DNA from: Escherichia phage REP4
Sequence record: OQ174503.1
Length of the DNA: 64,000 nt
Reading direction: 5' to 3' (one strand)
The notes under the pieces are model-generated. The model was given only the letters and a program-made list of their open reading frames with translations, did no database searches and was not told the DNA's origin. Both the position numbers and the translations under genes were made by a program. Below are positions 3,647 through 32,626 of this stretch, piece after piece (position 1 is the first letter of the stretch; every line of letters starts with the position of its first letter).

Positions 3647-4059
3647 TATTTTCCAGCCTCAAATGCTCGCATGTCTTGAATATGCTTGATAGCAAATCCA
3701 CGTGATTTAATAGCATCAAGAGCTCCGCTACAGAAATCCAATAAAATTCCCCAATATTGTAATGAAGTATCAACTTTTAAAACATCCTTATCAGCTGATA
3801 GAACTGTCTTCATTTCTGATTTCTCATAACGATCCATACTAAATTCATCACCATCTCCTCGTCCCGAGTAGTAGTCTAATTTAGCTTTAAGAGCAACTTT
3901 TTTCTGTGCGTCAATTCTAAGCATTTCCTTTTTAATACTTGAATGCTTATTGAGCCATTTACTATATAACATCACATTATTAGCTGCTTCATACTGTAAT
4001 TTAGTCGAATCTATAAACACATCTTTCTTCAATTCTTCTTGAAGATCTTCTAATCTCAT
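3646..4059 (-). CDS. uvsY: UvsY recombination mediator protein
   Basis: 137 aa, MRLEDLQEELKKDVF...; length and sequence match T4 UvsY. Confidence 0.95.
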   Translation of the reverse strand: MRLEDLQEELKKDVFIDSTKLQYEAANNVMLYSKWLNKHSSIKKEMLRIDAQKKVALKAKLDYYSGRGDGDEFSMDRYEKSEMKTVLSADKDVLKVDTSLQYWGILLDFCSGALDAIKSRGFAIKHIQDMRAFEAGK

Positions 4060-4099
4060 ATTGTTCTCTATTCAATTGTTATTGGATGGACTTAGATTC

Positions 4100-4125
4100 A
4101 TTATACCACGTTTACACGTGAAGCA
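4100..4125 (-). promoter_or_regulatory. Putative MotA-dependent middle promoter of uvsY (candidate ori(uvsY)-type origin promoter)
   Basis: On minus strand: MotA-box TGCTTCA, 13-nt spacer, TATAAT, about 40 nt upstream of uvsY ATG; overlaps gene 25 stop. Confidence 0.45.
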
Positions 4126-4524
4126 TTATACTCTATTACTGGAAGCCAGTTGTAGTTTTATCTGCTCAATATCATCAGGGTTATCGATGACCGAAAAGCG
4201 TATTTCTACTATCAGAGTATAATCATCATAAACTGGTATTACATTAACTGCTAATTTATCAATACGTGGCTCGTAGTTTCTTACTGCGCTTTCAATGTTA
4301 CGCTCAACAGTATCAGCAGTAAGAGGAGTCATATTCTCAAAAAGCTGATCAGATAAATCACATCCAAATTCCGGGTCAAATGGTCTCGACCCTTTTCTAG
4401 TTGTAATAATTCCCAAAAGGCTATTTTTAATTGACCTTAATCCAAGGGATCTAGAAACATCTTTGTCCCAATCCATTTTCATTTCTGGGTCAATGTCAGA
4501 ATAAAGCTTATTAATATTTGCCAT
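4126..4524 (-). CDS. 25: gp25 baseplate wedge subunit (lysozyme-like fold)
   Basis: 132 aa, [15 protein letters not shown]...; T4 gp25-like. Confidence 0.95.
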   Translation of the reverse strand: MANINKLYSDIDPEMKMDWDKDVSRSLGLRSIKNSLLGIITTRKGSRPFDPEFGCDLSDQLFENMTPLTADTVERNIESAVRNYEPRIDKLAVNVIPVYDDYTLIVEIRFSVIDNPDDIEQIKLQLASSNRV

Positions 4525-5150
4525 TACAATAGCTCAAAGAATTCTTTGAGTCCTCTTATTACATGAGCGTGAGTTTTTCCACACTCTGGACATTTAATTG
4601 GAACAGCCAAATAAACAGTAGGCTTTAAAAGCATATCTTTTATAGCTACAATATCTGACTCTGTGATGATAGAATATAAATCTTCCAACTCTTTTTCATT
4701 TAAGTCTTCAATTGGAATGCTTTCCCCGTTAGCATGAATCGTTTCTATACATGATACTATCATGTGGGCTATATTTTTATCATCAAAAATTTTAGGGTAA
4801 TGGAACTTAATTTTAATGTCACCCAGTGTATACCAGAGGTCTTCTGGTGCATCTATTTGTGTATGTAATAGATTTATATGGGTTGGTATTTCAGTTCCAC
4901 AGGTGCACTTCCAGGAGTTTTCGTGATTAACTTCTCCAAGAGAATGCGCCCATAAATGAATCAGCAGTAGTTCTGATTCTTGGCGGTTTAAATCTTTTGC
5001 ATTTGTACAGTCTTTGATTAGCTTTTTAACGATCTCTTCTACTGAACCGTTCTTTTTAGCAGTAATAAGTTCTAGATATTCTTTAAGAGTAAATGCGCGA
5101 CAGTTGATTATTTTAGAACCAACTCTCACGTCAAATTTGTATTCATACAT
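4524..5150 (-). CDS. 26: gp26 baseplate hub subunit
   Basis: 208 aa; position and length as T4 gp26. Confidence 0.9.
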
Positions 5151-5171
5151 ATTTAGCTCCTTTATTTATCA

Positions 5172-5183
5172 TATTTATAAATA
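5172..5183. promoter_or_regulatory. Palindromic bidirectional late promoter TATTTATAAATA between divergent genes 26 and 51
   Basis: Contains TATAAATA on both strands, 18 nt before gene 51 ATG and 22 nt before gene 26 ATG. Confidence 0.55.
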
Positions 5184-5200
5184 GAATAAAAGGAGCATCT

Positions 5201-5950
5201 ATGGCAAACATTATTCGTTGTAAATTACCAGATGGTGTTCATCGTTTTAAACCATTTACGGTAGAAGATTATCGAGATTTTTTGTTAGTTCGAAACGATA
5301 TAGAACATCGGTCACCACAAGAACAAAAAGAAATAATTGCTGATTTAATTGCTGATTATTTTGGAGACTATCCGAAGACTTGGCAACCATTTATATTTTT
5401 GCAGGTATTTGTAGGGTCAATAGGTAAAACTAAAGTACCGGTCACATTTGTATGTCCAAAATGTAAAAAAGAAAAGACAGTTCCATTTGAAATATATCAA
5501 AAAGAATTAAAGGAACCTGTTTTTGATGTAGCTAATGTTAAAATTAAATTAAAGTTTCCTTCTGAGTTTTATGAAAATAAAGCAAAGATGATTACTGAAA
5601 ATATTCATTCTGTTCAAGTAGATGAAACATGGTATGATTGGAAGGAAATTAGCGAATCAAGTCAAATAGAACTTGTTGATGCAATCGAGATAGAAACATT
5701 AGAAAAAATTCTCGATGCAATGAATCCTATTAATTTAACATTGCATATGTCGTGTTGTAATAAGTATGTAAAAAAATACACTGATATAGTAGATGTATTT
5801 AAGCTATTAGTTAACCCAGATGAAATATTTACTTTTTATCAAATTAATCACACACTCGTAAAAAGTAATTATAGCTTAAATTCAATAATGAAAATGATTC
5901 CTGCCGAGCGCGGATTCGTATTAAAACTGATTGAGAAGGATAAACAATAA
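5201..5950 (+). CDS. 51: gp51 baseplate hub assembly catalyst
   Basis: 249 aa; CxxC pairs; T4 gp51-like. Confidence 0.9.
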
Positions 5951-7125
5951 TGAGTATGTTGCAACGCCCAGGATATCCAAATCTCAGCGTTAAATTATTT
6001 GATAGCTACGACGCTTGGAGTAATAATAGATTTGTTGAATTAGCTGCTACTATTACCACATTAACTATGCGGGATTCTCTTTATGGCCGAAATGAAGGAA
6101 TGCTGCAGTTTTATGATTCTAAAAATATCCATACAAAAATGGATGGAAATGAAATAATTCAGATTTCTGTAGCTAATGCAAACGATATTAATAATGTTAA
6201 AACACGAATTTATGGATGTAAGCATTTTTCCGTGTCAGTAGATTCAAAGGGTGATAACATCATTGCTATTGAATTGGGAACTATTCATTCTATAGAAAAT
6301 CTTAAATTTGGCAGACCGTTTTTCCCTGATGCAGGTGAATCTATAAAGGAAATGCTTGGCGTCATTTATCAAGATCGCACGTTATTAACTCCAGCAATAA
6401 ATGCTATAAATGCTTATGTTCCTGATATTCCATGGACTAGCACATTTGAAAACTATTTGTCGTATGTTAGAGAAGTTGCTCTAGCTGTAGGAAGTGACAA
6501 ATTTGTATTTGTGTGGCAAGACATCATGGGAGTTAACATGATGGACTATGATATGATGATAAATCAAGAACCGTATCCAATGATTGTCGGTGAGCCATCT
6601 TTAATAGGTCAATTCATCCAAGAATTAAAATATCCATTAGCATATGATTTCGTTTGGTTGACTAAATCGAATCCTCACAAACGTGACCCAATGAAAAACG
6701 CTACTATCTATGCGCATTCATTTTTAGATTCTTCATTGCCAATGATTACTACAGGAAAGGGCGAAAACTCTATTGTAGTGTCAAGATCAGGTGCTTATTC
6801 TGAAATGACTTATAGGAACGGGTATGAAGAAGCTATTCGTCTTCAAACTATGGCACAATACGATGGTTATGCTAAATGTTCTACTGTCGGTAATTTTAAC
6901 TTGACACCTGGCGTTAAAATTATTTTTAATGATAGTAAAAACCAATTTAAAACAGAATTTTACGTTGATGAAGTCATCCATGAATTATCCAATAATAATT
7001 CAGTAACTCATCTATATATGTTCACTAATGCAACGAAACTGGAAACAATAGACCCAGTTAAGGTTAAAAATGAATTTAAATCTGATACTACCACTGAAGA
7101 AAGTAGTTCTTCCAATAAGCAATAA
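5950..7125 (+). CDS. 27: gp27 baseplate hub subunit
   Basis: 391 aa; T4 gp27-like. Confidence 0.95.
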
Positions 7126-11440: not shown

Positions 11441-11444
11441 CAAT

Positions 11445-11462
11445 GGGGACCTTTCGGTCCCC
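11445..11462 (+). terminator. Intrinsic terminator hairpin ggggaccTTTCggtcccc after gene 54
   Basis: 7-bp GC-rich stem, tetraloop, followed by ATATTTTTATTT. Confidence 0.55.
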
Positions 11463-11468
11463 ATATTT

Positions 11469-11759
11469 TTATTTACGGAATGAAATAAAAGCAGCAACTG
11501 AAGCAACTAAACTGTCTTCAATATAAACTTCAATTTTTACCGGAGCTTCTGACTCAAATTTACCTGTTACTACACCTTGGAAAATACTTTCAGTCTGCTC
11601 TGGCTTTGAAAAATTTTCAGAAGGAAAAATTCCGAACTTTTTATCTGTTCCAAAAATTTTGATAAATTCATCGTAAACTGCTTCATTAAAAGCATTATCA
11701 GCAGGAATAACGCCTTCAACTACAAGTTCTTGACCTAAAAAGCGTAAAGAAGATTTCAT
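11469..11759 (-). CDS. Conserved hypothetical protein (96 aa) at the T4 alt.-3 position
   Basis: ORF with GAGG SD; first gene of its own early transcription unit. Confidence 0.6.
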   Translation of the reverse strand: MKSSLRFLGQELVVEGVIPADNAFNEAVYDEFIKIFGTDKKFGIFPSENFSKPEQTESIFQGVVTGKFESEAPVKIEVYIEDSLVASVAAFISFRK

Positions 11760-11790: not shown

Positions 11791-11820
11791 ATTATAACAC
11801 CACACGAGGGACTTGTAAAC
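11791..11820 (-). promoter_or_regulatory. T4-type early promoter (GTTTACA -35, TATAAT -10) for the 96-aa ORF
   Basis: rc on plus strand: ATTATA ...18 nt... TGTAAAC; the -35 overlaps the stop of the upstream alt paralog. Confidence 0.5.
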
Positions 11821-13877
11821 TACATTTTGAACTTTTTAGACATTCCGTTGATGTTAACCAAAGAAGCCAAGATTTGAGAAACTTCGTTTTCCTCTTCTTT
11901 TGATTCTTCTACAAGGAATTGATTAAATCCAGCCATTGGACGAACTTCACCAGTTTCCATCAGATGATCGCCATCATATACCGATTCTTCTAATTGTTCA
12001 GAAGGAGGAACGATTGTGCCTTCGATTAGATACTTGTTATAAGCAGTTTCTTTCATCATGTACGTACTCACTTTATTAATCTTCAGCAAAATTCCACGCG
12101 GTAGAATAACTTCAGCTTCTGATGGAAATCCTGATAAATGACCTGGAACGATAACTTTGATTCGCTCAGCTCCTTTAATTACCATACCCACGCTAGTTTC
12201 AGCATCTTCATTAGCATATGCAGAATGACTACCCATATGCATTAAATCTTCAGCATCAACTGAACCTTCTCCTTCACCAGAAAATACTGCACCGGAATCA
12301 TCTAGAGCCATATAGTTTTTACCATGCTCACCGAAGATATTTGGTTTAAGTGATGTGGATACGAAGTTCTTGAAATAGAACATTTTATTTTCAATATTAT
12401 GACGTAAAGTTTTAAAGGTAACTTCTTGTCCACGATAAAGCGTAGTTCCTGGAGGAAGAACTGAACCTTTGGCAAAGGCAGAATCCATTGTCTCGATGTG
12501 TTTAATAGCTCGTTCCATGTATTCTTCACGGGTAGAATCTGGTTTACCCAAGAGGAACGAGTTCATTTCAACATATGAATCTGCACAATAATCTTCAATT
12601 ACATCAGACTCAGCCTGAGTCAGTCCTTTTGGAGTTACTTCGGTGCTTGCGTATTCATATGCCTGAGCAGCAGATTCATTAATCAATTTATAAATGCCAT
12701 TCATGACAAATTGAATAATAGCTACCTTTTCATCTGGCGTGGCTTTAGAACCTTTAACTAAATCATTGACAATTTTCTTAATAACATCAAAGCTATTAGA
12801 AATATTAATGTCAGCAAGATCGCTTAAAATTTTATCGGTTTTATAATCAAAGAATTCTTTATTCTTTAAATATTCTTGAGAACCTTGATATGTTATATCG
12901 CTCTGCAGTCTGATAGACGGATCACGTAAACGTGCATGGGCCAATGCAATATGATTTCGGAAGCTTTCTAGTTCATAATCATTAGATTTAAAACGAGAAG
13001 CACTCCTCATACCACCGATAGCTCCTTTGCTGAAATTTGAACCAATCTGAATAACACCAGAGTTCATTGGTCCTTCTGCTTTATATACCGGAACTTTAGA
13101 TTCAAACTCTTGATATTTCTTAGCGGCGAAGCTATCACCCTGAAGTGAAGCATCGACAGTAGAATATTGAGCTTGTGCTGCTAATCGACGACTAATTTTA
13201 GTTTTCTGAATAACAGCTTGATCCGTGCGCTTATCATTTTCTAGAGCAATAGAAGCGGCAACAGCAACAGCTTTAGGAACAGCATTACCTGTTTTAACGT
13301 CTACATAAACATCACCAACCTTTGATTCAACTTTTGTGAATAACTCAGTTGAAATAGGAGGTACACCTGGAATGTCTTCTAAATTGGCACTTTTACGGTA
13401 AACCATAATATATGCGTACTTTTTATCGTAATCCCAGATTTCCTTTAAAAGAACATATCGACCCGCTCCTTTAGTACGTACTAAACGGTCGGCAATAACT
13501 TGCATTTGACGAGCTGCACCGTTTGTTTTACTCTTTAGTACGCGGAATAAGCATGCGTCAATTTTGTACTGTTTCATTGTCTGAAGAGCAGTATCAAAAA
13601 CCGCATTAATGACACCAATTGGATTTCCACCCAAGTTTTTAAGTTTAACGAGCGATAGTTTCTCATTGACACCTATCATTACGATATGCATCATTTTATC
13701 GCCTGGCTTAACGTTTTTATTTGTATCACCGCCAGAGGTGTATGTACAAAATCTAAATCCAGGAAGCACACTTTCTTCGCCGGCTTGAATAGAAAAAATT
13801 TGAGGTATTTTATGCTTAGGATTTAAGTTAACAACCGGCGCCGAAGCGCCGTCAAATAATTCTGTAATAAGTTCCAT
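11820..13877 (-). CDS. Alt-like ADP-ribosyltransferase paralog (685 aa)
   Basis: N-terminus MELITELFD... shared with Alt; ART motifs YRGQ / FVSTSL / EAEVILPRG; central region unrelated to upstream Alt. Confidence 0.85.
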   Translation of the reverse strand: MELITELFDGASAPVVNLNPKHKIPQIFSIQAGEESVLPGFRFCTYTSGGDTNKNVKPGDKMMHIVMIGVNEKLSLVKLKNLGGNPIGVINAVFDTALQTMKQYKIDACLFRVLKSKTNGAARQMQVIADRLVRTKGAGRYVLLKEIWDYDKKYAYIMVYRKSANLEDIPGVPPISTELFTKVESKVGDVYVDVKTGNAVPKAVAVAASIALENDKRTDQAVIQKTKISRRLAAQAQYSTVDASLQGDSFAAKKYQEFESKVPVYKAEGPMNSGVIQIGSNFSKGAIGGMRSASRFKSNDYELESFRNHIALAHARLRDPSIRLQSDITYQGSQEYLKNKEFFDYKTDKILSDLADINISNSFDVIKKIVNDLVKGSKATPDEKVAIIQFVMNGIYKLINESAAQAYEYASTEVTPKGLTQAESDVIEDYCADSYVEMNSFLLGKPDSTREEYMERAIKHIETMDSAFAKGSVLPPGTTLYRGQEVTFKTLRHNIENKMFYFKNFVSTSLKPNIFGEHGKNYMALDDSGAVFSGEGEGSVDAEDLMHMGSHSAYANEDAETSVGMVIKGAERIKVIVPGHLSGFPSEAEVILPRGILLKINKVSTYMMKETAYNKYLIEGTIVPPSEQLEESVYDGDHLMETGEVRPMAGFNQFLVEESKEEENEVSQILASLVNINGMSKKFKM

Positions 13878-13880
13878 GAT

Positions 13881-15974
13881 TTATCCTTGAACGAACTTGT
13901 AAGGCATGTTTGCAATATCTATGCAAGATGCAATAATTCCAAGAGATGATTCTACTTTTTGTTTAACATTTGATGAAACAAATGATGCAAAGTCAACTCT
14001 GTCTTCTATTTCAATATCACCTGTCATTGCAACTACTTCACCAGTTTCCATTAGACGGTCACCGTCATAAATTACTGATTCGGTGAGTTCTTCCGTAGTC
14101 ATAACTTCAGCTTGAATGAGTTTTGTATTATTAGATGTTGTTCCGTCATTATTAGAAGCATCAGTTATTTTATTAACTTTGACCATCAATCCGCGTGGTA
14201 GAATTACTTCAGCTTCTGTTGCTATTCCTAGACTTCCTGGATATACAACATTAACTTTATGAGCTCCATCAATTGCCCATCCTATTTGAACTTTAACGTA
14301 TTCAGGATTTTCTTTATACGCTCTTATTTCGTTTGGATTAATAGTTATTCCTTCTTCATTTTTATCAACTGTCAATTCATTACGAGCTTCTGGTTCTAAA
14401 AGACCAATACCAGCATGTGTAATTCCAAAACGTCCAAAAATGATAGGAGTTAAAGAAGTAGATACAAAATTTCTGAAATAGAACACTTTATTTTTAACTA
14501 GTGCTTCGTATATAGGAGCAGTCATGCTTTGAGCACGATAAACTGTAATGCCTTCTGGTATACGATCACCATTTTCAAAAGCTGAATCTAAGTTATTTAT
14601 AGCAGATTCAATTTCTTTTTCACTCATTACATCATATCGTTCTGGATTGTAACGACCCAAAAGAAGATTATTGATGTCAGTATATCCTGAACCACAATAC
14701 TCTCTAATGCCGCGCTTTTGTGATGGAGTATATTTAGAACCATCACGGGCAATAGTAATATCAATCATTGGACCTGCACCAATTCCAGAAAAGCTATAAA
14801 TCATTCTTTTAAGGAATTTAGTTTTTGCTGCGTTCCAGGAATTTTTAGTTATTTCTTCCCAGACTTCATCTGGCTGCCCTTTACGAGTTTTATTATGTTT
14901 ATCAAGCCAATTATCTTTATATTCTTCAAAGAATTGATTAACAGCTGCTGCGTATTTCTCTAAACATTTTATTGAAGTAGTTGGTTCATTTTTAATCGCA
15001 TTAAGAATTACATCTTTAATTTTTTCAGAAACTTCATTAACCTCACTTTTTGAAAAGAATTTATAATCATAGTGAAGTTCATCTGCAGTTCCTTCGGCAA
15101 TGATTTTTGCTGCCTTAGTTTTAGAAGCTAATGAATTAATTCCAAGTTTCATTTCTTCCGCTTCGGGAATTAAAGGAGCGGTAGCAGGTTTATTGAAATT
15201 AGCTGCGGTAGATTCATACTTCTGGAATAATTCGCTTTCAAATCTAGAAGATTCTAATGATTGACTTTGTGCAATTGCTCTACGGGAAATTTTAACTTTA
15301 ACGATTACAGCTTGGTCAGAACGTTTATCATTTTCTTGCGCAATAGATGCCGCAATTGCCTCATTTTTAGTTACTTGAGCTCCAGTATCTTTATTAATAT
15401 AAACATCGCCGACTTTCGATTCAACTTTAGTAAAGAGCTCGGTACTAATTTCCGGAACTCCTGGAATGTCTTCTAGTGATACATTTTTGCGATGTATAAG
15501 AATATATGCATACTTTTTATCATAATCCCAGAGTTCCTTAAGAAGGACGTATCTGCCACCTGAACGACTACGGATAAGTCTATCAGCAATAACTTGAATT
15601 TGTCGAGCTTGACCGGCAGTTTTAGACTTAAGAATACGAAGCATGCAGGCATCAATTTTATACTGACGCATTGTTTGCATTGCAACAGTAAAAACTGAAT
15701 TGATGTAATTAATTGGGCTTGGACCGAGACCTTTTAATTTAGCAATTGAACCTTTAGCAGTTAATGTAAAAGGAACAATATGCATCATTTTATCGCCCAT
15801 TTTTAAATCGCGATTAGTATCACCTCCAGATGTATAGGTACATAAACGAAAGCCTGGTTGTTCAATTGCATCATCAACGTGAACTGAAAAAATTTGCGGT
15901 ATTTTCTTCTTTGGATTTAAGTTTGTAATCGGAAGAGTAGTATCTTCGTCAAATAATTCTGTAATGAGTTCCAT
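13881..15974 (-). CDS. alt: Alt ADP-ribosyltransferase (virion-packaged, injected; 697 aa from second ATG)
   Basis: MELITELFDEDTTLPITNLNPKK...; ART motifs YRAQ / FVSTSL / EAEVILPRG; GAGG SD favours ATG at 15974 over 15977. Confidence 0.9.
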   Translation of the reverse strand: MELITELFDEDTTLPITNLNPKKKIPQIFSVHVDDAIEQPGFRLCTYTSGGDTNRDLKMGDKMMHIVPFTLTAKGSIAKLKGLGPSPINYINSVFTVAMQTMRQYKIDACMLRILKSKTAGQARQIQVIADRLIRSRSGGRYVLLKELWDYDKKYAYILIHRKNVSLEDIPGVPEISTELFTKVESKVGDVYINKDTGAQVTKNEAIAASIAQENDKRSDQAVIVKVKISRRAIAQSQSLESSRFESELFQKYESTAANFNKPATAPLIPEAEEMKLGINSLASKTKAAKIIAEGTADELHYDYKFFSKSEVNEVSEKIKDVILNAIKNEPTTSIKCLEKYAAAVNQFFEEYKDNWLDKHNKTRKGQPDEVWEEITKNSWNAAKTKFLKRMIYSFSGIGAGPMIDITIARDGSKYTPSQKRGIREYCGSGYTDINNLLLGRYNPERYDVMSEKEIESAINNLDSAFENGDRIPEGITVYRAQSMTAPIYEALVKNKVFYFRNFVSTSLTPIIFGRFGITHAGIGLLEPEARNELTVDKNEEGITINPNEIRAYKENPEYVKVQIGWAIDGAHKVNVVYPGSLGIATEAEVILPRGLMVKVNKITDASNNDGTTSNNTKLIQAEVMTTEELTESVIYDGDRLMETGEVVAMTGDIEIEDRVDFASFVSSNVKQKVESSLGIIASCIDIANMPYKFVQG

Positions 15975-15997
15975 CATATCCTCTCTAGTGTTTATTC

Positions 15998-16005
15998 TAT
16001 TTATA
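15998..16005 (-). promoter_or_regulatory. Late promoter (TATAAATA on minus strand) upstream of alt
   Basis: Plus-strand TATTTATA about 25 nt upstream of alt ATG. Confidence 0.5.
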
Positions 16006-16026
16006 AAATTAAAGGCCCGAAGGCCT

Positions 16027-16215
16027 TTAATAATCTAATGGTAAGAGAGTACGATATATTTCAAACTTCGGACCTTTTTCATAGGCATCAAATGTTTCTG
16101 TAAATTTATTATAAGCATATGCATCTACAAATTCGAGAATGACTTGTGATACAGAAGTAGAAACATCTCCACCTTCTTTTTGAGCCACGACAATTGTTTC
16201 TAAGTAAGCTTTCAT
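16027..16215 (-). CDS. Hypothetical small protein (62 aa) between ligase and alt
   Basis: Track ORF; stop followed by GAAG-type hairpin; 4-nt overlap with gene 30. Confidence 0.5.
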   Translation of the reverse strand: MKAYLETIVVAQKEGGDVSTSVSQVILEFVDAYAYNKFTETFDAYEKGPKFEIYRTLLPLDY

Positions 16216-17675
16216 AGACCAGTTACCTCATGAAAATCACCAAATACATCTTCGAATGTATTAGCTTTAGTTTTATCTTCACGTAAACGAATCGCAATCG
16301 GAAGAAATAATTTAACGTAATCAGTGCGGCCATCAGATTTTAACCAACCGTTGCATTCGCACTCTAGAATTTTTCCAATATAATAATTTTGGTTTTCCAT
16401 AATGCGAGTACGGTCAAGTTCATGCGATTTTACACCGGCTTTATCTTTTAAGCCTGAACCAGCATTTACTTTAATTTTTCCACATTCTGATTCAAGAATA
16501 AATCCACCAGCTTTAGTAGGGTCTTTACGGTGAGGATAAATTCCTACAATTTTTAAATCAACATCAATTACTTCTTTAAATTTATAAAGATTTTTTGAAC
16601 GAGCATTTTCCCATAATCCATCGATATTTTTGAGAATAATACCTTCAAGACCTTGGTCAATATACTTTTTATAAATTACCTTAGCTTCATCTAGGTTATT
16701 TACTACCTGGTTTTCAATTAAAATTACTTTATCATATCCTGATGTCATTTGTTCTAGTTTAGAAAAACGTACATCATATTTTAAACGAAACGCTGGAAGA
16801 CCGTATATTTCTACCAACGGGACATAATCCCAGACCTGAAACTTCATGCATTGAGCTTCTTTTTCAGAAATGGTTCCTTTTAAGGATTTATTGGCGATTC
16901 CATTAGAAGCAGTACGAGATTCCGCTACTTCGGCGAATTCTTTAGCTTTACTAATTTCAGGATAAGCATCAAAAAGAAAATCTAGGCCTTCTGGTTCCTT
17001 TTTAACTTGCTCATGGTATACCAATTCGCCATCAATTAACACACCTTCTGGATGAATCTGGCGGGCTTCAGCAGTCATTTTGATTAATTCTTCCTTAAGA
17101 AGATCTAATCCTAGATATTCATTACCAGCTCGTGATAAAAGACGAACATCATCTAATTCATCGCCTCGGACTTCAGCAAAACACCGGGCTCCATCTGCTT
17201 TTAACTGTGCAAAGGCTGGAAATTTGATATTCTTACTAATGCCCTTTTCATCATAAGAACTTGCCAGCATTTGAGGTTGTTCAGGAATTAAACCTGGCCA
17301 AACTTTATTTGCAATAGATACTGAAGCACCGCATTCAAGGTCTCGCATCATAACTCGACGCAAAACTTCAACATCATCCTTTTTACCATCAGTGATATAT
17401 CCAGTTAATTCCTCAATTGCAGCATTTCCAGTCAATTTCCGAGTAGCTAACGTGAATTCAATGAAGTCAAGCATATCGGTAATAGTCAGCATTCCAAAAC
17501 TCTGGGTAGCAATACCAGGTTTAGGCCATTTCTTGATATAATACTGTAACCCACGAGAATAAGTCAGACGATATACTCGTTTAAGCAATTCATTATCTTT
17601 ATTCTTTTCAAGAATTGCTTGCTTCTGCTTAGTTGATCCAATAGATGCTATTTCATTCAGAATTTTAAGAATCAT
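16212..17675 (-). CDS. 30: gp30 ATP-dependent DNA ligase
   Basis: 487 aa; adenylation motif KADGARC; length and sequence as T4 DNA ligase. Confidence 0.97.
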   Translation of the reverse strand: MILKILNEIASIGSTKQKQAILEKNKDNELLKRVYRLTYSRGLQYYIKKWPKPGIATQSFGMLTITDMLDFIEFTLATRKLTGNAAIEELTGYITDGKKDDVEVLRRVMMRDLECGASVSIANKVWPGLIPEQPQMLASSYDEKGISKNIKFPAFAQLKADGARCFAEVRGDELDDVRLLSRAGNEYLGLDLLKEELIKMTAEARQIHPEGVLIDGELVYHEQVKKEPEGLDFLFDAYPEISKAKEFAEVAESRTASNGIANKSLKGTISEKEAQCMKFQVWDYVPLVEIYGLPAFRLKYDVRFSKLEQMTSGYDKVILIENQVVNNLDEAKVIYKKYIDQGLEGIILKNIDGLWENARSKNLYKFKEVIDVDLKIVGIYPHRKDPTKAGGFILESECGKIKVNAGSGLKDKAGVKSHELDRTRIMENQNYYIGKILECECNGWLKSDGRTDYVKLFLPIAIRLREDKTKANTFEDVFGDFHEVTGL

Positions 17676-30361: not shown

Positions 30362-32626
30362 TCATAATTTACAGGATGAACAATCTTCAGCTTTTGGAGT
30401 TTCTATTTCATAATCATCAGTACCAGAACCGTCGCGAGTATTATGATAATAGAAATTTTTTCCGCCAAAATACCAAAAGTACAAAAGGTCATCAATCATT
30501 ATTGACATTGGAACCTTTCCTTTTGGAAAAATCTGCGGGTCATAATATGTATTCGCTGAAGCTGATTGACATACCCATTTCAGCATAATAGCTACCTGCG
30601 TAAGATAAGGTTTATTACCTTTCTTAGCTAATTTCCATGTATAATCATATAGGTCTATGTTATGTTCAATATTGGGCACGACTTGATTAAAGGAACCCTC
30701 TTTTGATTCTTTAACAGAGACTGGTCCACGTGGAGGCTCGATACCGTTTGTACTGTTAGAAACTTGGGAAGATGACTCACATGGCATAAGTGCTGATAAT
30801 GTGCTATTACGGATGCCAAAGAGCTTAAGGTCTTCCCGCAGCGACGACCAGTCACAAACGTATTTTGGAGCTGCGATTTGGTCAATCTTTTTATTGTACC
30901 AGTCGATAGGTAATTCGCCTCGAGACCAACGAGTGTCTGAATAATATTCGCAAGGTCCTTTTTCTTTGGCGAGCTTAATGGATGCTTTAATGAGTCCATA
31001 CTGTAATCTCTCAAATAGTTCATGTGTTAAATCGTTAGCATCTTCATAAGAAGCAAAGTTACTTGCCAGCCAAGCTGCATAGTTAGTAACACCTACACCA
31101 AGATTACGACGCTTTTTAGCTTTTTCTGCTTCAGGAACTGGATATCCTTGGTAGTCCAAAAGATTATCAAGAGCGCGAACTTGAACTTCTGCTAATTCAT
31201 TAATTTTATCTTGGTCTTGCCAGTCGAAGTTATCTAACACAAATGCAGATAACGTACATAATCCAATTTCAGCATCAGGACTATTCACATCATTTGTTGG
31301 AATAGCAATTTCACAGCACAAGTTACTCTGACGAATAGGTGCCTTTTCACGAATAAACGGAGTATAGTTATTCGTATTATCAATGAACTGTACATAAATC
31401 CTTGCTGTTCCTGAGCGTTCAGTCATGAGTAATTCAAACAGTTCACGGGCTTTAATACGCTTTTTACGAATATTAGGGTCTTTTTCTGCGGCTTCGTACA
31501 ATTCACGGAATCGGTCTTGGTCTTTAAAATAAGAATAATACAGCTCGCCACCCATTTCATGCGGACTGAACAGAGTAATATAATCGTTCTTTCCGAAACG
31601 TTCCATCATTAGATCATTCAGCTGGACGCCATAATCCATATGACGGATACGGTTTTCTTCTACGCCTTTGTTATTTTTCAAAACGAGAAGATTTTCAACT
31701 TCCAAATGCCAAATAGGATAATAAGCAGTAGCAGCGCCGCCACGAATTCCACCCTGTGAGCATGATTTAACAGCAGTCTGAAAATGTTTCCAAAAAGGAA
31801 TAACACCAGTATGGCGCACTTCACCTGTGCCAATCTTAGAACCTTCGGCACGAATCATACCAACGTTAATACCAATTCCAGCGCGTTTGGAGATATATTC
31901 AACAATTGAAGCAGAAGCTTTGTTAATAGACTTCAGCGAATCACCTGCCTCAATAACAACGCATGAACTAAACTGCCGAGTTGGAGTACGACATCCAGCC
32001 ATAATAGGAGTTGGCAATGAAATCTGTCGAGTAGATACTGCTTCATAAAAACGAATAACATGTTTTAATCTATCAACAGGTTCATCTTGATGCAATGCCA
32101 TTCCAATAGTCATAAATGCAAACTGTGGAGTTTCATAAATTTGACCAGTGGTTTTATCTTTAACGAGATATTTTTCTTTTAATTGCATCGCCCCGGAATA
32201 AGTAAATTCCATATCCCGCTCGTGCTTAATTTTTGATTCTAAAAATGTAATTTCTTCTGCAGAATATTTTGACAACAATTCAGGGTCATATTTACCTTCA
32301 TTTACACAGTAAGAAATATGGTCAATAAATGAACGTGGTTCATATTGCCCGTAAACATGCTTACGAAGAGCGAACATTAAACAGCGTGCAGCTACATATT
32401 GATAATCAGGCTCTTCAACTGAAATAGAATTCGCAGCAGCCTTAATGACAATGGTTTGAATGTCATCAGTTGTCATTCCATCACGGAGATATGATTTAAT
32501 ATTTTCATATAATTCATAAGGATCTACAGATGTTCCTTCAGCTGCCCAAGATAAAACTTTAATAATTTTTTGCGGGTCAAAGCTCTGAGAAACACCACTA
32601 CTTTTGATAACATTAATTAATTGCAT
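30362..32626 (-). CDS. nrdA: Ribonucleotide reductase large subunit NrdA
   Basis: 754 aa; ATP-cone N-terminus, catalytic Cys motifs, C-terminal CSSCKL-type tail. Confidence 0.97.
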   Translation of the reverse strand: MQLINVIKSSGVSQSFDPQKIIKVLSWAAEGTSVDPYELYENIKSYLRDGMTTDDIQTIVIKAAANSISVEEPDYQYVAARCLMFALRKHVYGQYEPRSFIDHISYCVNEGKYDPELLSKYSAEEITFLESKIKHERDMEFTYSGAMQLKEKYLVKDKTTGQIYETPQFAFMTIGMALHQDEPVDRLKHVIRFYEAVSTRQISLPTPIMAGCRTPTRQFSSCVVIEAGDSLKSINKASASIVEYISKRAGIGINVGMIRAEGSKIGTGEVRHTGVIPFWKHFQTAVKSCSQGGIRGGAATAYYPIWHLEVENLLVLKNNKGVEENRIRHMDYGVQLNDLMMERFGKNDYITLFSPHEMGGELYYSYFKDQDRFRELYEAAEKDPNIRKKRIKARELFELLMTERSGTARIYVQFIDNTNNYTPFIREKAPIRQSNLCCEIAIPTNDVNSPDAEIGLCTLSAFVLDNFDWQDQDKINELAEVQVRALDNLLDYQGYPVPEAEKAKKRRNLGVGVTNYAAWLASNFASYEDANDLTHELFERLQYGLIKASIKLAKEKGPCEYYSDTRWSRGELPIDWYNKKIDQIAAPKYVCDWSSLREDLKLFGIRNSTLSALMPCESSSQVSNSTNGIEPPRGPVSVKESKEGSFNQVVPNIEHNIDLYDYTWKLAKKGNKPYLTQVAIMLKWVCQSASANTYYDPQIFPKGKVPMSIMIDDLLYFWYFGGKNFYYHNTRDGSGTDDYEIETPKAEDCSSCKL

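Follow-up and report, generated by a model that had tools for sequence, protein, structure and literature searches.

The stretch analysed here, 64,000 nucleotides of Escherichia phage REP4 (OQ174503.1; hereafter the window), is a segment of a Tequatrovirus (T4-like) genome. It carries two intact genes of the Alt type of ADP-ribosyltransferase (ART) in tandem on the minus strand. The pair occupies the genomic position of the Alt locus, between gene 30/alt.1 and alt.-3/gene 54 and behind a late promoter box. Copy 1 (alt, or A1; nt 13881–15974) is of the T2/T6/RB type and encodes 697 residues, numbered here from MELITE. Copy 2 (A2; nt 11820–13877) encodes 685 residues and is elsewhere annotated as 'alt.-2' or 'Alt-like'. 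Two adjacent in-frame ATGs are found at the start of copy 1 (nt 15972–15977, minus strand), as in T4; from the first of them the open reading frame covers nt 13881–15977 and 698 residues. The TAA of copy 1 (nt 13881–13883) and the ATG of copy 2 (nt 13875–13877) are separated by the three nucleotides ATC, and the Shine-Dalgarno (SD) sequence of copy 2, AAGGA (nt 13884–13888, minus strand), overlaps the end of copy 1. An earlier interpretation made from the letters alone, called the sequence-only reading below, had described two adjacent full-length minus-strand genes of these lengths, the second close behind the first with an SD of its own. Both reading frames are indeed intact.

The two proteins align in BLASTP with 41% identity (E = 2e-157). 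The identity is about 67% over residues 1–237, in agreement with the ~230 shared N-terminal residues noted before, 7–20% over residues ~238–415, and about 40% in the C-terminal tail. Within the ART region, the helices and strands are 30–57% identical and the part between the STS and ExE motifs only 3–17%. The stretch without detectable similarity comprises about 180 residues, shorter than the ~250 residues given in the sequence-only reading, which had also confined the difference to this central module. Since the ART domains are only about 36% identical, the difference between the copies reaches beyond the center.

Copy 1 consists of a propeptide (residues 1–6), an N-domain (7–238), an all-helical middle segment of class I (239–410; nt 14745–15260), the ART domain (411–632; nt 14079–14744; PF03496, E = 1.9e-37) and a predicted C-terminal propeptide (633–697; nt 13881–14078). 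Copy 2 has the same order of parts: propeptide (1–6), N-domain (7–237), an all-helical middle of class II (238–415; nt 12633–13166), ART domain (416–631; nt 11985–12632) and predicted C-terminal propeptide (632–685; nt 11820–11984), all on the minus strand. The N-terminal Alt domain is fused to the ART in both copies, with an N-domain identity to T4 Alt of about 100% for copy 1 and 67% for copy 2.

Membership in the ART family is clear for both proteins. The Pfam gathering score of PF03496 is 23.4 bits, and copy 1 reaches 129 bits and copy 2 72.9 bits. PHROG phrog_802, 'Alt-like RNA polymerase ADP-ribosyltransferase', matches both in full length (E = 3e-272 for copy 1 and 3e-255 for copy 2), and PF26846 (Tevenvirinae_ADPRT) together with PF03496 is precomputed on homologs 99% identical to copy 2. 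The catalytic Arg in YR(A/G)Q is R480 in copy 1 (nt 14535–14537) and R482 in copy 2 (nt 12432–12434). FVSTSL lies at residues 503–508 and 505–510, its S-T-S being residues 505–507 (nt 14454–14462) and 507–509 (nt 12351–12359), respectively. EAEVILPRG supplies E587-A-E589 in both copies (nt 14208–14216 and nt 12111–12119). All these residues are in register with T4 Alt, and R, STS and ExE are invariant across 20–21 aligned members of the Alt family. The family profile and the alignment of the catalytic residues, which the sequence-only reading had named as checks, thus both speak for the second copy, and the ART fold is recognized in each. Judged by their sequences, both copies are full-length Alt-type R-S-E ADP-ribosyltransferases with intact catalytic motifs.

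The ExE glutamate mutant E577A of T4 Alt is catalytically dead (Pozhydaieva et al., PMC11404850). This residue is equated here with the second Glu of EMEVILPRG in T4 Alt, which is E576 when counted from MELITE in the 682-residue numbering; the published name is one higher, which fits numbering from the upstream ATG. By analogy, either copy would carry out NAD-dependent ADP-ribosylation of arginine. The label 'RNA polymerase ADP-ribosyltransferase' on copy 2 has been transferred by homology only.

The history of copy 2 can be followed in T4 (NC_000866), where alt (682 residues) is followed by two short genes, alt.-1 (61 residues) and alt.-2 (67 residues). The product of alt.-1 is 93% identical to copy 2 residues 1–56, and that of alt.-2 is 98% identical to residues 62–116; they are only 56–62% identical to T4's own Alt. 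In blastn, the T4 segment and copy 2 run collinearly with 95% DNA identity, apart from two differences. The first is a 1-nt deletion in an A-run (A5 at window nt 13714–13718, minus strand; A4 in T4), which splits the T4 remnant into alt.-1 and alt.-2. The second is a deletion of 1,699 bp that begins and ends within the 9-bp direct repeats CTAAAGAGT (nt 13530–13538) and CTAAAAAGT (nt 11831–11839), which bound window nt 11831–13538 on the minus strand. The T4 deletions remove copy 2 residues ~117–685, including the whole ART. The SD sequence upstream of alt.-1 is identical to that of copy 2, the downstream sequence is the same, and with PHROGs families 23015 and 15247 the score of copy 2 is far above that of copy 1. 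Because the segments are collinear and distinguished by two deletions, and their products are 93% and 98% identical, sequence comparison identifies T4 alt.-1/alt.-2 as the deleted remnant of exactly the copy 2 paralog. This answers a question that the sequence-only reading had raised about these two genes. The T4 GenBank note describes alt.-1/alt.-2 as having arisen by an old duplication of the beginning of alt, and they were already called an alt duplication by Nolan et al. 2006 (PMC1524935). The T4-type deletion junction was found in about 100 of 502 matching records (about one fifth), wild isolates included; in the other ~400 the gene is complete.

The remnant in T4 and in these ~100 related records, which carry nothing else of the second gene, could be taken to mean that copy 2 is a duplicate in decay, heading for the condition seen in T4. 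The coding sequence of copy 2 was compared among the window phage, T2, RB14, RB51 and ime09. The reading frame is intact, with 685 residues, in all five. The number of synonymous substitutions per site (dS) is 0.1–0.28 for most pairs and 0.05 for the closely related RB14 and RB51, and its ratio to the nonsynonymous value (dN/dS) is 0.04–0.05 overall, 0.07–0.11 in the middle and 0.02–0.05 in the ART. Copy 2 is under strong purifying selection. The effector part, moreover, is kept in 401 phage records at 93–98% nucleotide identity. With intact genes of equal length and low dN/dS, a pseudogene or decaying duplicate is ruled out; that account of copy 2 is scarcely credible, and of the four alternatives weighed in this work it is the only one that the data exclude.

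T4 Alt (NP_049811), a capsid-packaged, injected arginine mono-ADP-ribosyltransferase, shares with the window the genomic slot (ligase, alt.1, alt, then alt.-3 and gp54) and the promoter region, and its ITE-6 and L-x-E motifs, R/STS/ExE residues and C-propeptide motif are present in both window copies. It is 70% identical to copy 1 overall, with about 100% over residues 1–245, 14–40% over residues ~255–410 and 55–80% in the ART; copy 1 is a different allele of T4 Alt's class. Toward copy 2 the N-domain of T4 Alt is 67% identical, the middle is of a different class and displays no detectable homology, and the ART is 36% identical. At the nucleotide level copy 1 and T4 alt are 93–100% identical over codons 1–220, 28–60% over the middle and part of the ART, and 83–98% at the 3′ end. 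The middle and ART thus behave as an exchangeable cassette. The allele in the first slot and the state of the second assort independently: slur14 carries an A1-type alt with the remnant, and phiC600P9 and WilhelmHis carry a T4-type alt with a full copy 2.

Mosaics between the two genes were found as well. The homologs P0003, P0004, P0005 and P0007 change from A1-type to A2-type sequence at a single clean breakpoint, located at residue ~45, ~105, ~175 or ~220. These single chimeric alt genes have the N-terminus of copy 1 type and the middle, ART and C-terminus of copy 2 type, and in contigs of 65 kb and 110 kb no alt gene other than the chimera lies between alt.1 and alt.-3. Metagenomic Tequatrovirus contigs with a single chimeric alt include L003 (nt 5001–7061), L007 (nt 4001–6055) and L008 (nt 4001–6061). 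Such genes are the product expected from unequal crossover between tandem paralogs, and because the crossover points differ among contigs, from ~45 to ~220, the comparison indicates that this recombination is recurrent. An assembly artefact was considered as the source of the chimeras and is unlikely. The longest exact match between the two window genes extends over 20 nt and so speaks against a collapsed assembly; in addition, a k99 ENA contig of 110 kb contains one of the chimeras.

The middle segments were sorted into classes among 120 retrieved homologs, and the classes were compared as profiles on alignment columns. Class I comprises the A1, T4 and P0016/18 types, which are 26–33% identical to each other. 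Class II comprises the A2 type, to which P0009 is 60%, the JS10 type 47–50% and P0013–15 23–26% identical. The middle of P0017 is a singleton outside both classes. When the class I and class II profiles were aligned with hhalign, no homology was detected (probability 0.1%). A phmmer search with the copy 2 middle against 1.84 billion representative proteins (a 50%-identity library) returned 0 matches; against Pfam it gave only sub-threshold noise (CesA, Noc2), and against NCBIfam nothing. The phmmer search matched not even the representative of its own family; the representative of the copy 2 cluster presumably carries a different middle cassette. Searching the PDB by sequence gave 0 matches for copy 2 and for copy 1 only weak ones, to helices of CdtA and iota toxin, and at the sequence level there is no Alt structure in the PDB.

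AlphaFold models of the two proteins (mean predicted local distance difference test, pLDDT, 74.8 and 76.4) display the same architecture: an alpha/beta N-domain at residues ~12–225, a short linker of low confidence, an all-helical region at ~240–470 (pLDDT 80–92) and an ART beta core at ~480–625. The tail, corresponding to the propeptide, is of low confidence in both, with pLDDT below 50 for the C-propeptide of copy 2; the middle of copy 1 is modelled with pLDDT 75–92. About ten helices are predicted per middle, at nearly matching positions in the two copies, although the input alignments of both models mixed the two middle classes. When the BFVD model of SP18 Alt served as a common target, copy 2 reached a TMq of 0.63 and copy 1 one of 0.41. 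The matching helix positions suggest that the two middles may be one fast-evolving all-alpha domain, not two unrelated domains. The claim that the centers are unrelated therefore holds at the level of sequence, and may be an overstatement at the level of structure. Among the BFVD matches were 'split' Alt annotations, with separate open reading frames for the N-domain and the ART, in several phages, for example Acinetobacter ZZ1 and Henu6, Citrobacter CF1 and Aeromonas 50AhydR13PP.

The likeness of the two enzymes raises the question of redundancy. Copy 2 might be a back-up Alt that is packaged and active, modifies the same targets, for example RNA polymerase alpha, and simply raises the dose. 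The chassis, the catalytic motifs and the overall helix pattern are indeed common to both copies, and T4 has lost copy 2 with no obvious defect. Redundant copies, however, are expected to homogenise or decay, whereas each of the two types is under strong purifying selection; the middles have no detectable homology, the ART domains have diverged to about 36% identity, and the 3–17% identity between STS and ExE is lower still. Redundancy is on these grounds unlikely.

The ends of the proteins bear on their fate in the phage head. In T4 Alt the prohead protease gp21 removes 6 N-terminal residues (ITE-6) and 63 C-terminal residues (LTE-619), as determined by mass spectrometry of heads (PMC5694885), and mature T4 Alt is 68.2 kDa (PMC5694885; PMC9026906). 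Residues 7–619 of T4 Alt compute to 68.2 kDa, equal to the published value, so that the mapping of the sites reproduces the mature mass. It follows from these sites that the ~230-residue N-domain stays in the mature protein. The sequence-only reading had this whole region trimmed by the protease, which does not agree with the loss of 6 N-terminal residues only. It also follows that the 'YDGD(R/H)LMETGEV' motif, counted in that reading as part of the ART core together with the R, STS and ExE motifs, sits in the C-terminal propeptide that is cleaved off; the other three motifs retain their place in the core.

Both window copies keep the ITE-6 motif. The aligned L-x-E site is EELTE632|S in copy 1 (LTE-632) and EQLEE631|S in copy 2 (LEE-631), corresponding to LTE-619 of T4, with YDGDxLMETGE inside the propeptide of copy 1 and YDGDHLMETGE inside that of copy 2. 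By analogy with T4 Alt, gp21 would cleave both copies at both ends, and the predicted mature masses are about 70.1 kDa for copy 1 and 69.1 kDa for copy 2. Across the Alt family, conservation is highest in the N-domain and the C-propeptide; the former is basic (pI 9.5–9.7) and the latter acidic (pI 4.2–4.6; 4.2 in copy 1). YDGDxLMETGE and nearby residues are invariant in all of the 20–21 aligned members, though gp21 removes them in T4 Alt. The C-propeptide of copy 2 has a dN of 0 among the five phages. The invariant motif, the absence of nonsynonymous change and the opposite charge of propeptide and N-domain suggest that the propeptide has a conserved function, for example in targeting to the core or in inhibition before cleavage.

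In T4 a mature head contains ~40 copies of Alt. Packaging has been demonstrated for T4 Alt only (PMC9026906, PMC5694885), and copy 2 could be an active ART that is left out of the head, acting late in the producing cell, or that is packaged inefficiently. This is rather improbable, given that copy 2 keeps ITE-6, an N-domain at 67% identity, the L-x-E site and the invariant propeptide motif with dN 0, features of the chassis that have no evident use outside prohead targeting and processing. The conservation of the N-domain and C-propeptide throughout the family, and the description of Alt as a core protein (PMC11404850), might instead point to a copy 2 serving chiefly as a structural or core protein of the head, its ART activity incidental or lost. 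Such a role is very improbable: R, STS and ExE are invariant in the 20–21 members, dN/dS of the ART is 0.02–0.05, and Alt is non-essential for head assembly (PMC9026906).

A T4-type late promoter box, TATAAATA, is found at nt 15998–16005 (minus strand), about 21 nt upstream of the copy 1 start and directly after a GC-rich hairpin, AAAGGCC-TTCG-GGCCTTT, with a following T-run (nt 16011–16028, minus strand). This terminator-like hairpin comes directly after alt.1 and upstream of the pair; it was read directly from the sequence and is not among the elements listed by the consensus terminator scan. A conserved terminator upstream of alt was reported by Nolan 2006 (PMC1524935). The TATAAATA octamer occurs 10 times in the whole window with 9.3 occurrences expected, which is the chance frequency in AT-rich DNA, and the evidence for a promoter is therefore its position and conservation. 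In T4, T2, RB14 and RB51 the hairpin is identical and the box is conserved in position and sequence. Over the whole stretch of hairpin, box, SD and ATGATG, T2, RB14 and RB51 do not differ from the window, and T4 differs only slightly. The late promoter that the sequence-only reading placed before the pair can be upheld on this basis.

The terminator scan lists no terminator-like site on the minus strand between the promoter box and copy 2. Copy 2 would therefore be expressed from the promoter of copy 1, either co-transcribed with it or translationally linked behind it. A second TATAAATA is present inside copy 1 at nt 14594–14601 (minus strand), some 720 nt before copy 2 begins. This box might act as an internal late promoter, or it may be a chance match, since the octamer is at chance frequency in the window.

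The reading that we favour, at a little better than even odds, is that the locus represents the ancestral two-gene form of the Tequatrovirus alt locus and delivers two injected ARTs with different targets. Both genes would be transcribed late from the TATAAATA upstream of copy 1, with copy 2 translated from its own SD. The proteins would share a delivery chassis, made up of the 6-residue propeptide ending in ITE, the basic N-domain of ~230 residues and the acidic C-propeptide after L-x-E, which by analogy with T4 Alt would bring them into the prohead core. There gp21 would trim them to their mature sizes of ~70.1 and ~69.1 kDa, and both would be ejected with the DNA. Each copy would carry a different effector part, formed by the all-helical middle and an ART of the R-S-E (ExE, arginine-specific) type. 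The infecting particle would thereby deliver two ARTs whose spectra of host targets differ, and the injected pair would ADP-ribosylate arginines on partly different sets of host proteins. The conserved flanks may serve as recombination handles through which the effector part is exchanged, lost as in T4, or fused by unequal crossover.

Several points weigh against this reading. The packaging, cleavage, injection and activity of copy 2 are extrapolated from T4 Alt, and the different targets are deduced from divergence of the sequences. The matching helix patterns, and the shared fold of the middles that they may reflect, weaken the case for different recognition modules, with the proviso that both input alignments mixed the classes. 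No late promoter lies directly upstream of copy 2, and the late box occurs in the window at the level of chance. Finally, T4 does not require Alt and does well in the absence of copy 2, so that any benefit from copy 2 would be conditional.

An extension of the two-enzyme reading can be offered more tentatively, with the chances somewhat short of even. The Alt family may be a system of modular effector delivery, in which a conserved chassis for capsid targeting and ejection is combined with interchangeable cassettes of middle and ART that are shuffled by recombination like those of polymorphic toxins. Copy 2 would then be a second injected ART acting on another host protein, possibly one involved in defence or stress response. 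If this holds, half of the ARTs that typical T-even phages inject have escaped the work based on T4, which has lost copy 2.

Knowledge of injected ARTs in T-even phages comes mainly from T4, in which the second gene is reduced to a stump. In T2 and the other sequenced relatives that have the pair, about 400 in all, both Alt enzymes are full-length and strongly conserved, and their effector parts differ. If copy 2 is packaged and has targets of its own, host takeover by typical T-even phages includes a modification that is invisible to studies of T4. With its naturally occurring cassette swaps, deletions and fusions, the locus could further be used to map which parts of Alt govern packaging and which govern target choice.

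The pair itself is an ordinary and already annotated feature. The 4.9-kb locus is covered to at least 80% in 380 phage records at 90–98% identity, many of them annotated 'Alt-like RNA polymerase ADP-ribosyltransferase (x2)'. Both genes, with 697 and 685 residues, are likewise present in T2, RB14, RB51 and ime09, and the T6 alt of copy 1 type has its own GenBank record (X69894). The annotated second Alt of T2, RB14, RB51, RB32, ime09 and further phages is the same gene as copy 2, with 685 residues, 93–98% nucleotide identity and the same position; no substantive difference was seen, and copy 2 of the window is another allele. The gene pair is thus already known as the standard annotated state of T2-like phages. 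According to the sequence-only reading, the second gene would not be novel if it were a functionally characterised standard gene of these phages. It is standard and annotated there, and the literature search found no functional or proteomic study of the second Alt; the remaining interest lies in this second enzyme, which is absent from T4. A virion proteome was found for one phage with both genes, fD1 (PMC8309999, Table S3), in which the orthologs are g200 and g201. Searched with tblastn, the N-domain matches 1,816 places in 1,201 Straboviridae records, and multi-copy alt loci are therefore common.

Duplicates of alt were listed by Nolan et al. 2006 (PMC1524935), namely T4 alt.-1/alt.-2 and the partial duplicates RB49ORF183c and 44RRORF188c of RB49 and 44RR, and a full-length duplicate, 44RRORF187c, was reported in Aeromonas phage 44RR (PMC1524935). 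By the published description, 44RR, a phage of a different genus, likewise has a tandem diverged alt copy. T4 ModA and ModB belong to the same Alt/VIP2 R-S-E clade (PMC5512222); going by their description in the literature, they differ from the window proteins in being small, expressed early and not packaged. The bacterial R-S-E toxins of the C3, VIP2, iota and Vis types (PF03496) have neither the Tevenvirinae N-domain nor propeptides removed by a protease, and their delivery relies on secretion or on binary toxin partners and involves no phage capsid.

Upstream of the pair on the minus strand lie gp30 DNA ligase (nt 16212–17675) and alt.1 (nt 16027–16215; Pfam Phage_blade). Downstream, alt.-3 (nt 11469–11759, minus strand; DUF5498) is convergent with baseplate gene 54 on the plus strand. 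Right after the copy 2 stop and before alt.-3 there is a promoter of the sigma-70/T4-early type (nt 11791–11819, minus strand; TTTACA, 17 nt, TG-TATAAT; 11/12 matches). With so strong an early-type promoter before it, alt.-3 probably has early expression of its own, apart from the late alt pair. Gene 54 and alt.-3, which converge, have between them a perfect hairpin with a 9-bp stem (nt 11443–11464). A T-run accompanies it on the plus strand alone, which gives it the appearance of a gene 54 terminator, perhaps a bidirectional one.

One match to copy 2 was found in a record from another host. The last 126 nt (nt 32047–32172) of the 32-kb record MG010123.1, Staphylococcus phage SAJK-IND, are 96% identical to the copy 2 gene, and this end of the record is most likely contamination or a chimeric end.

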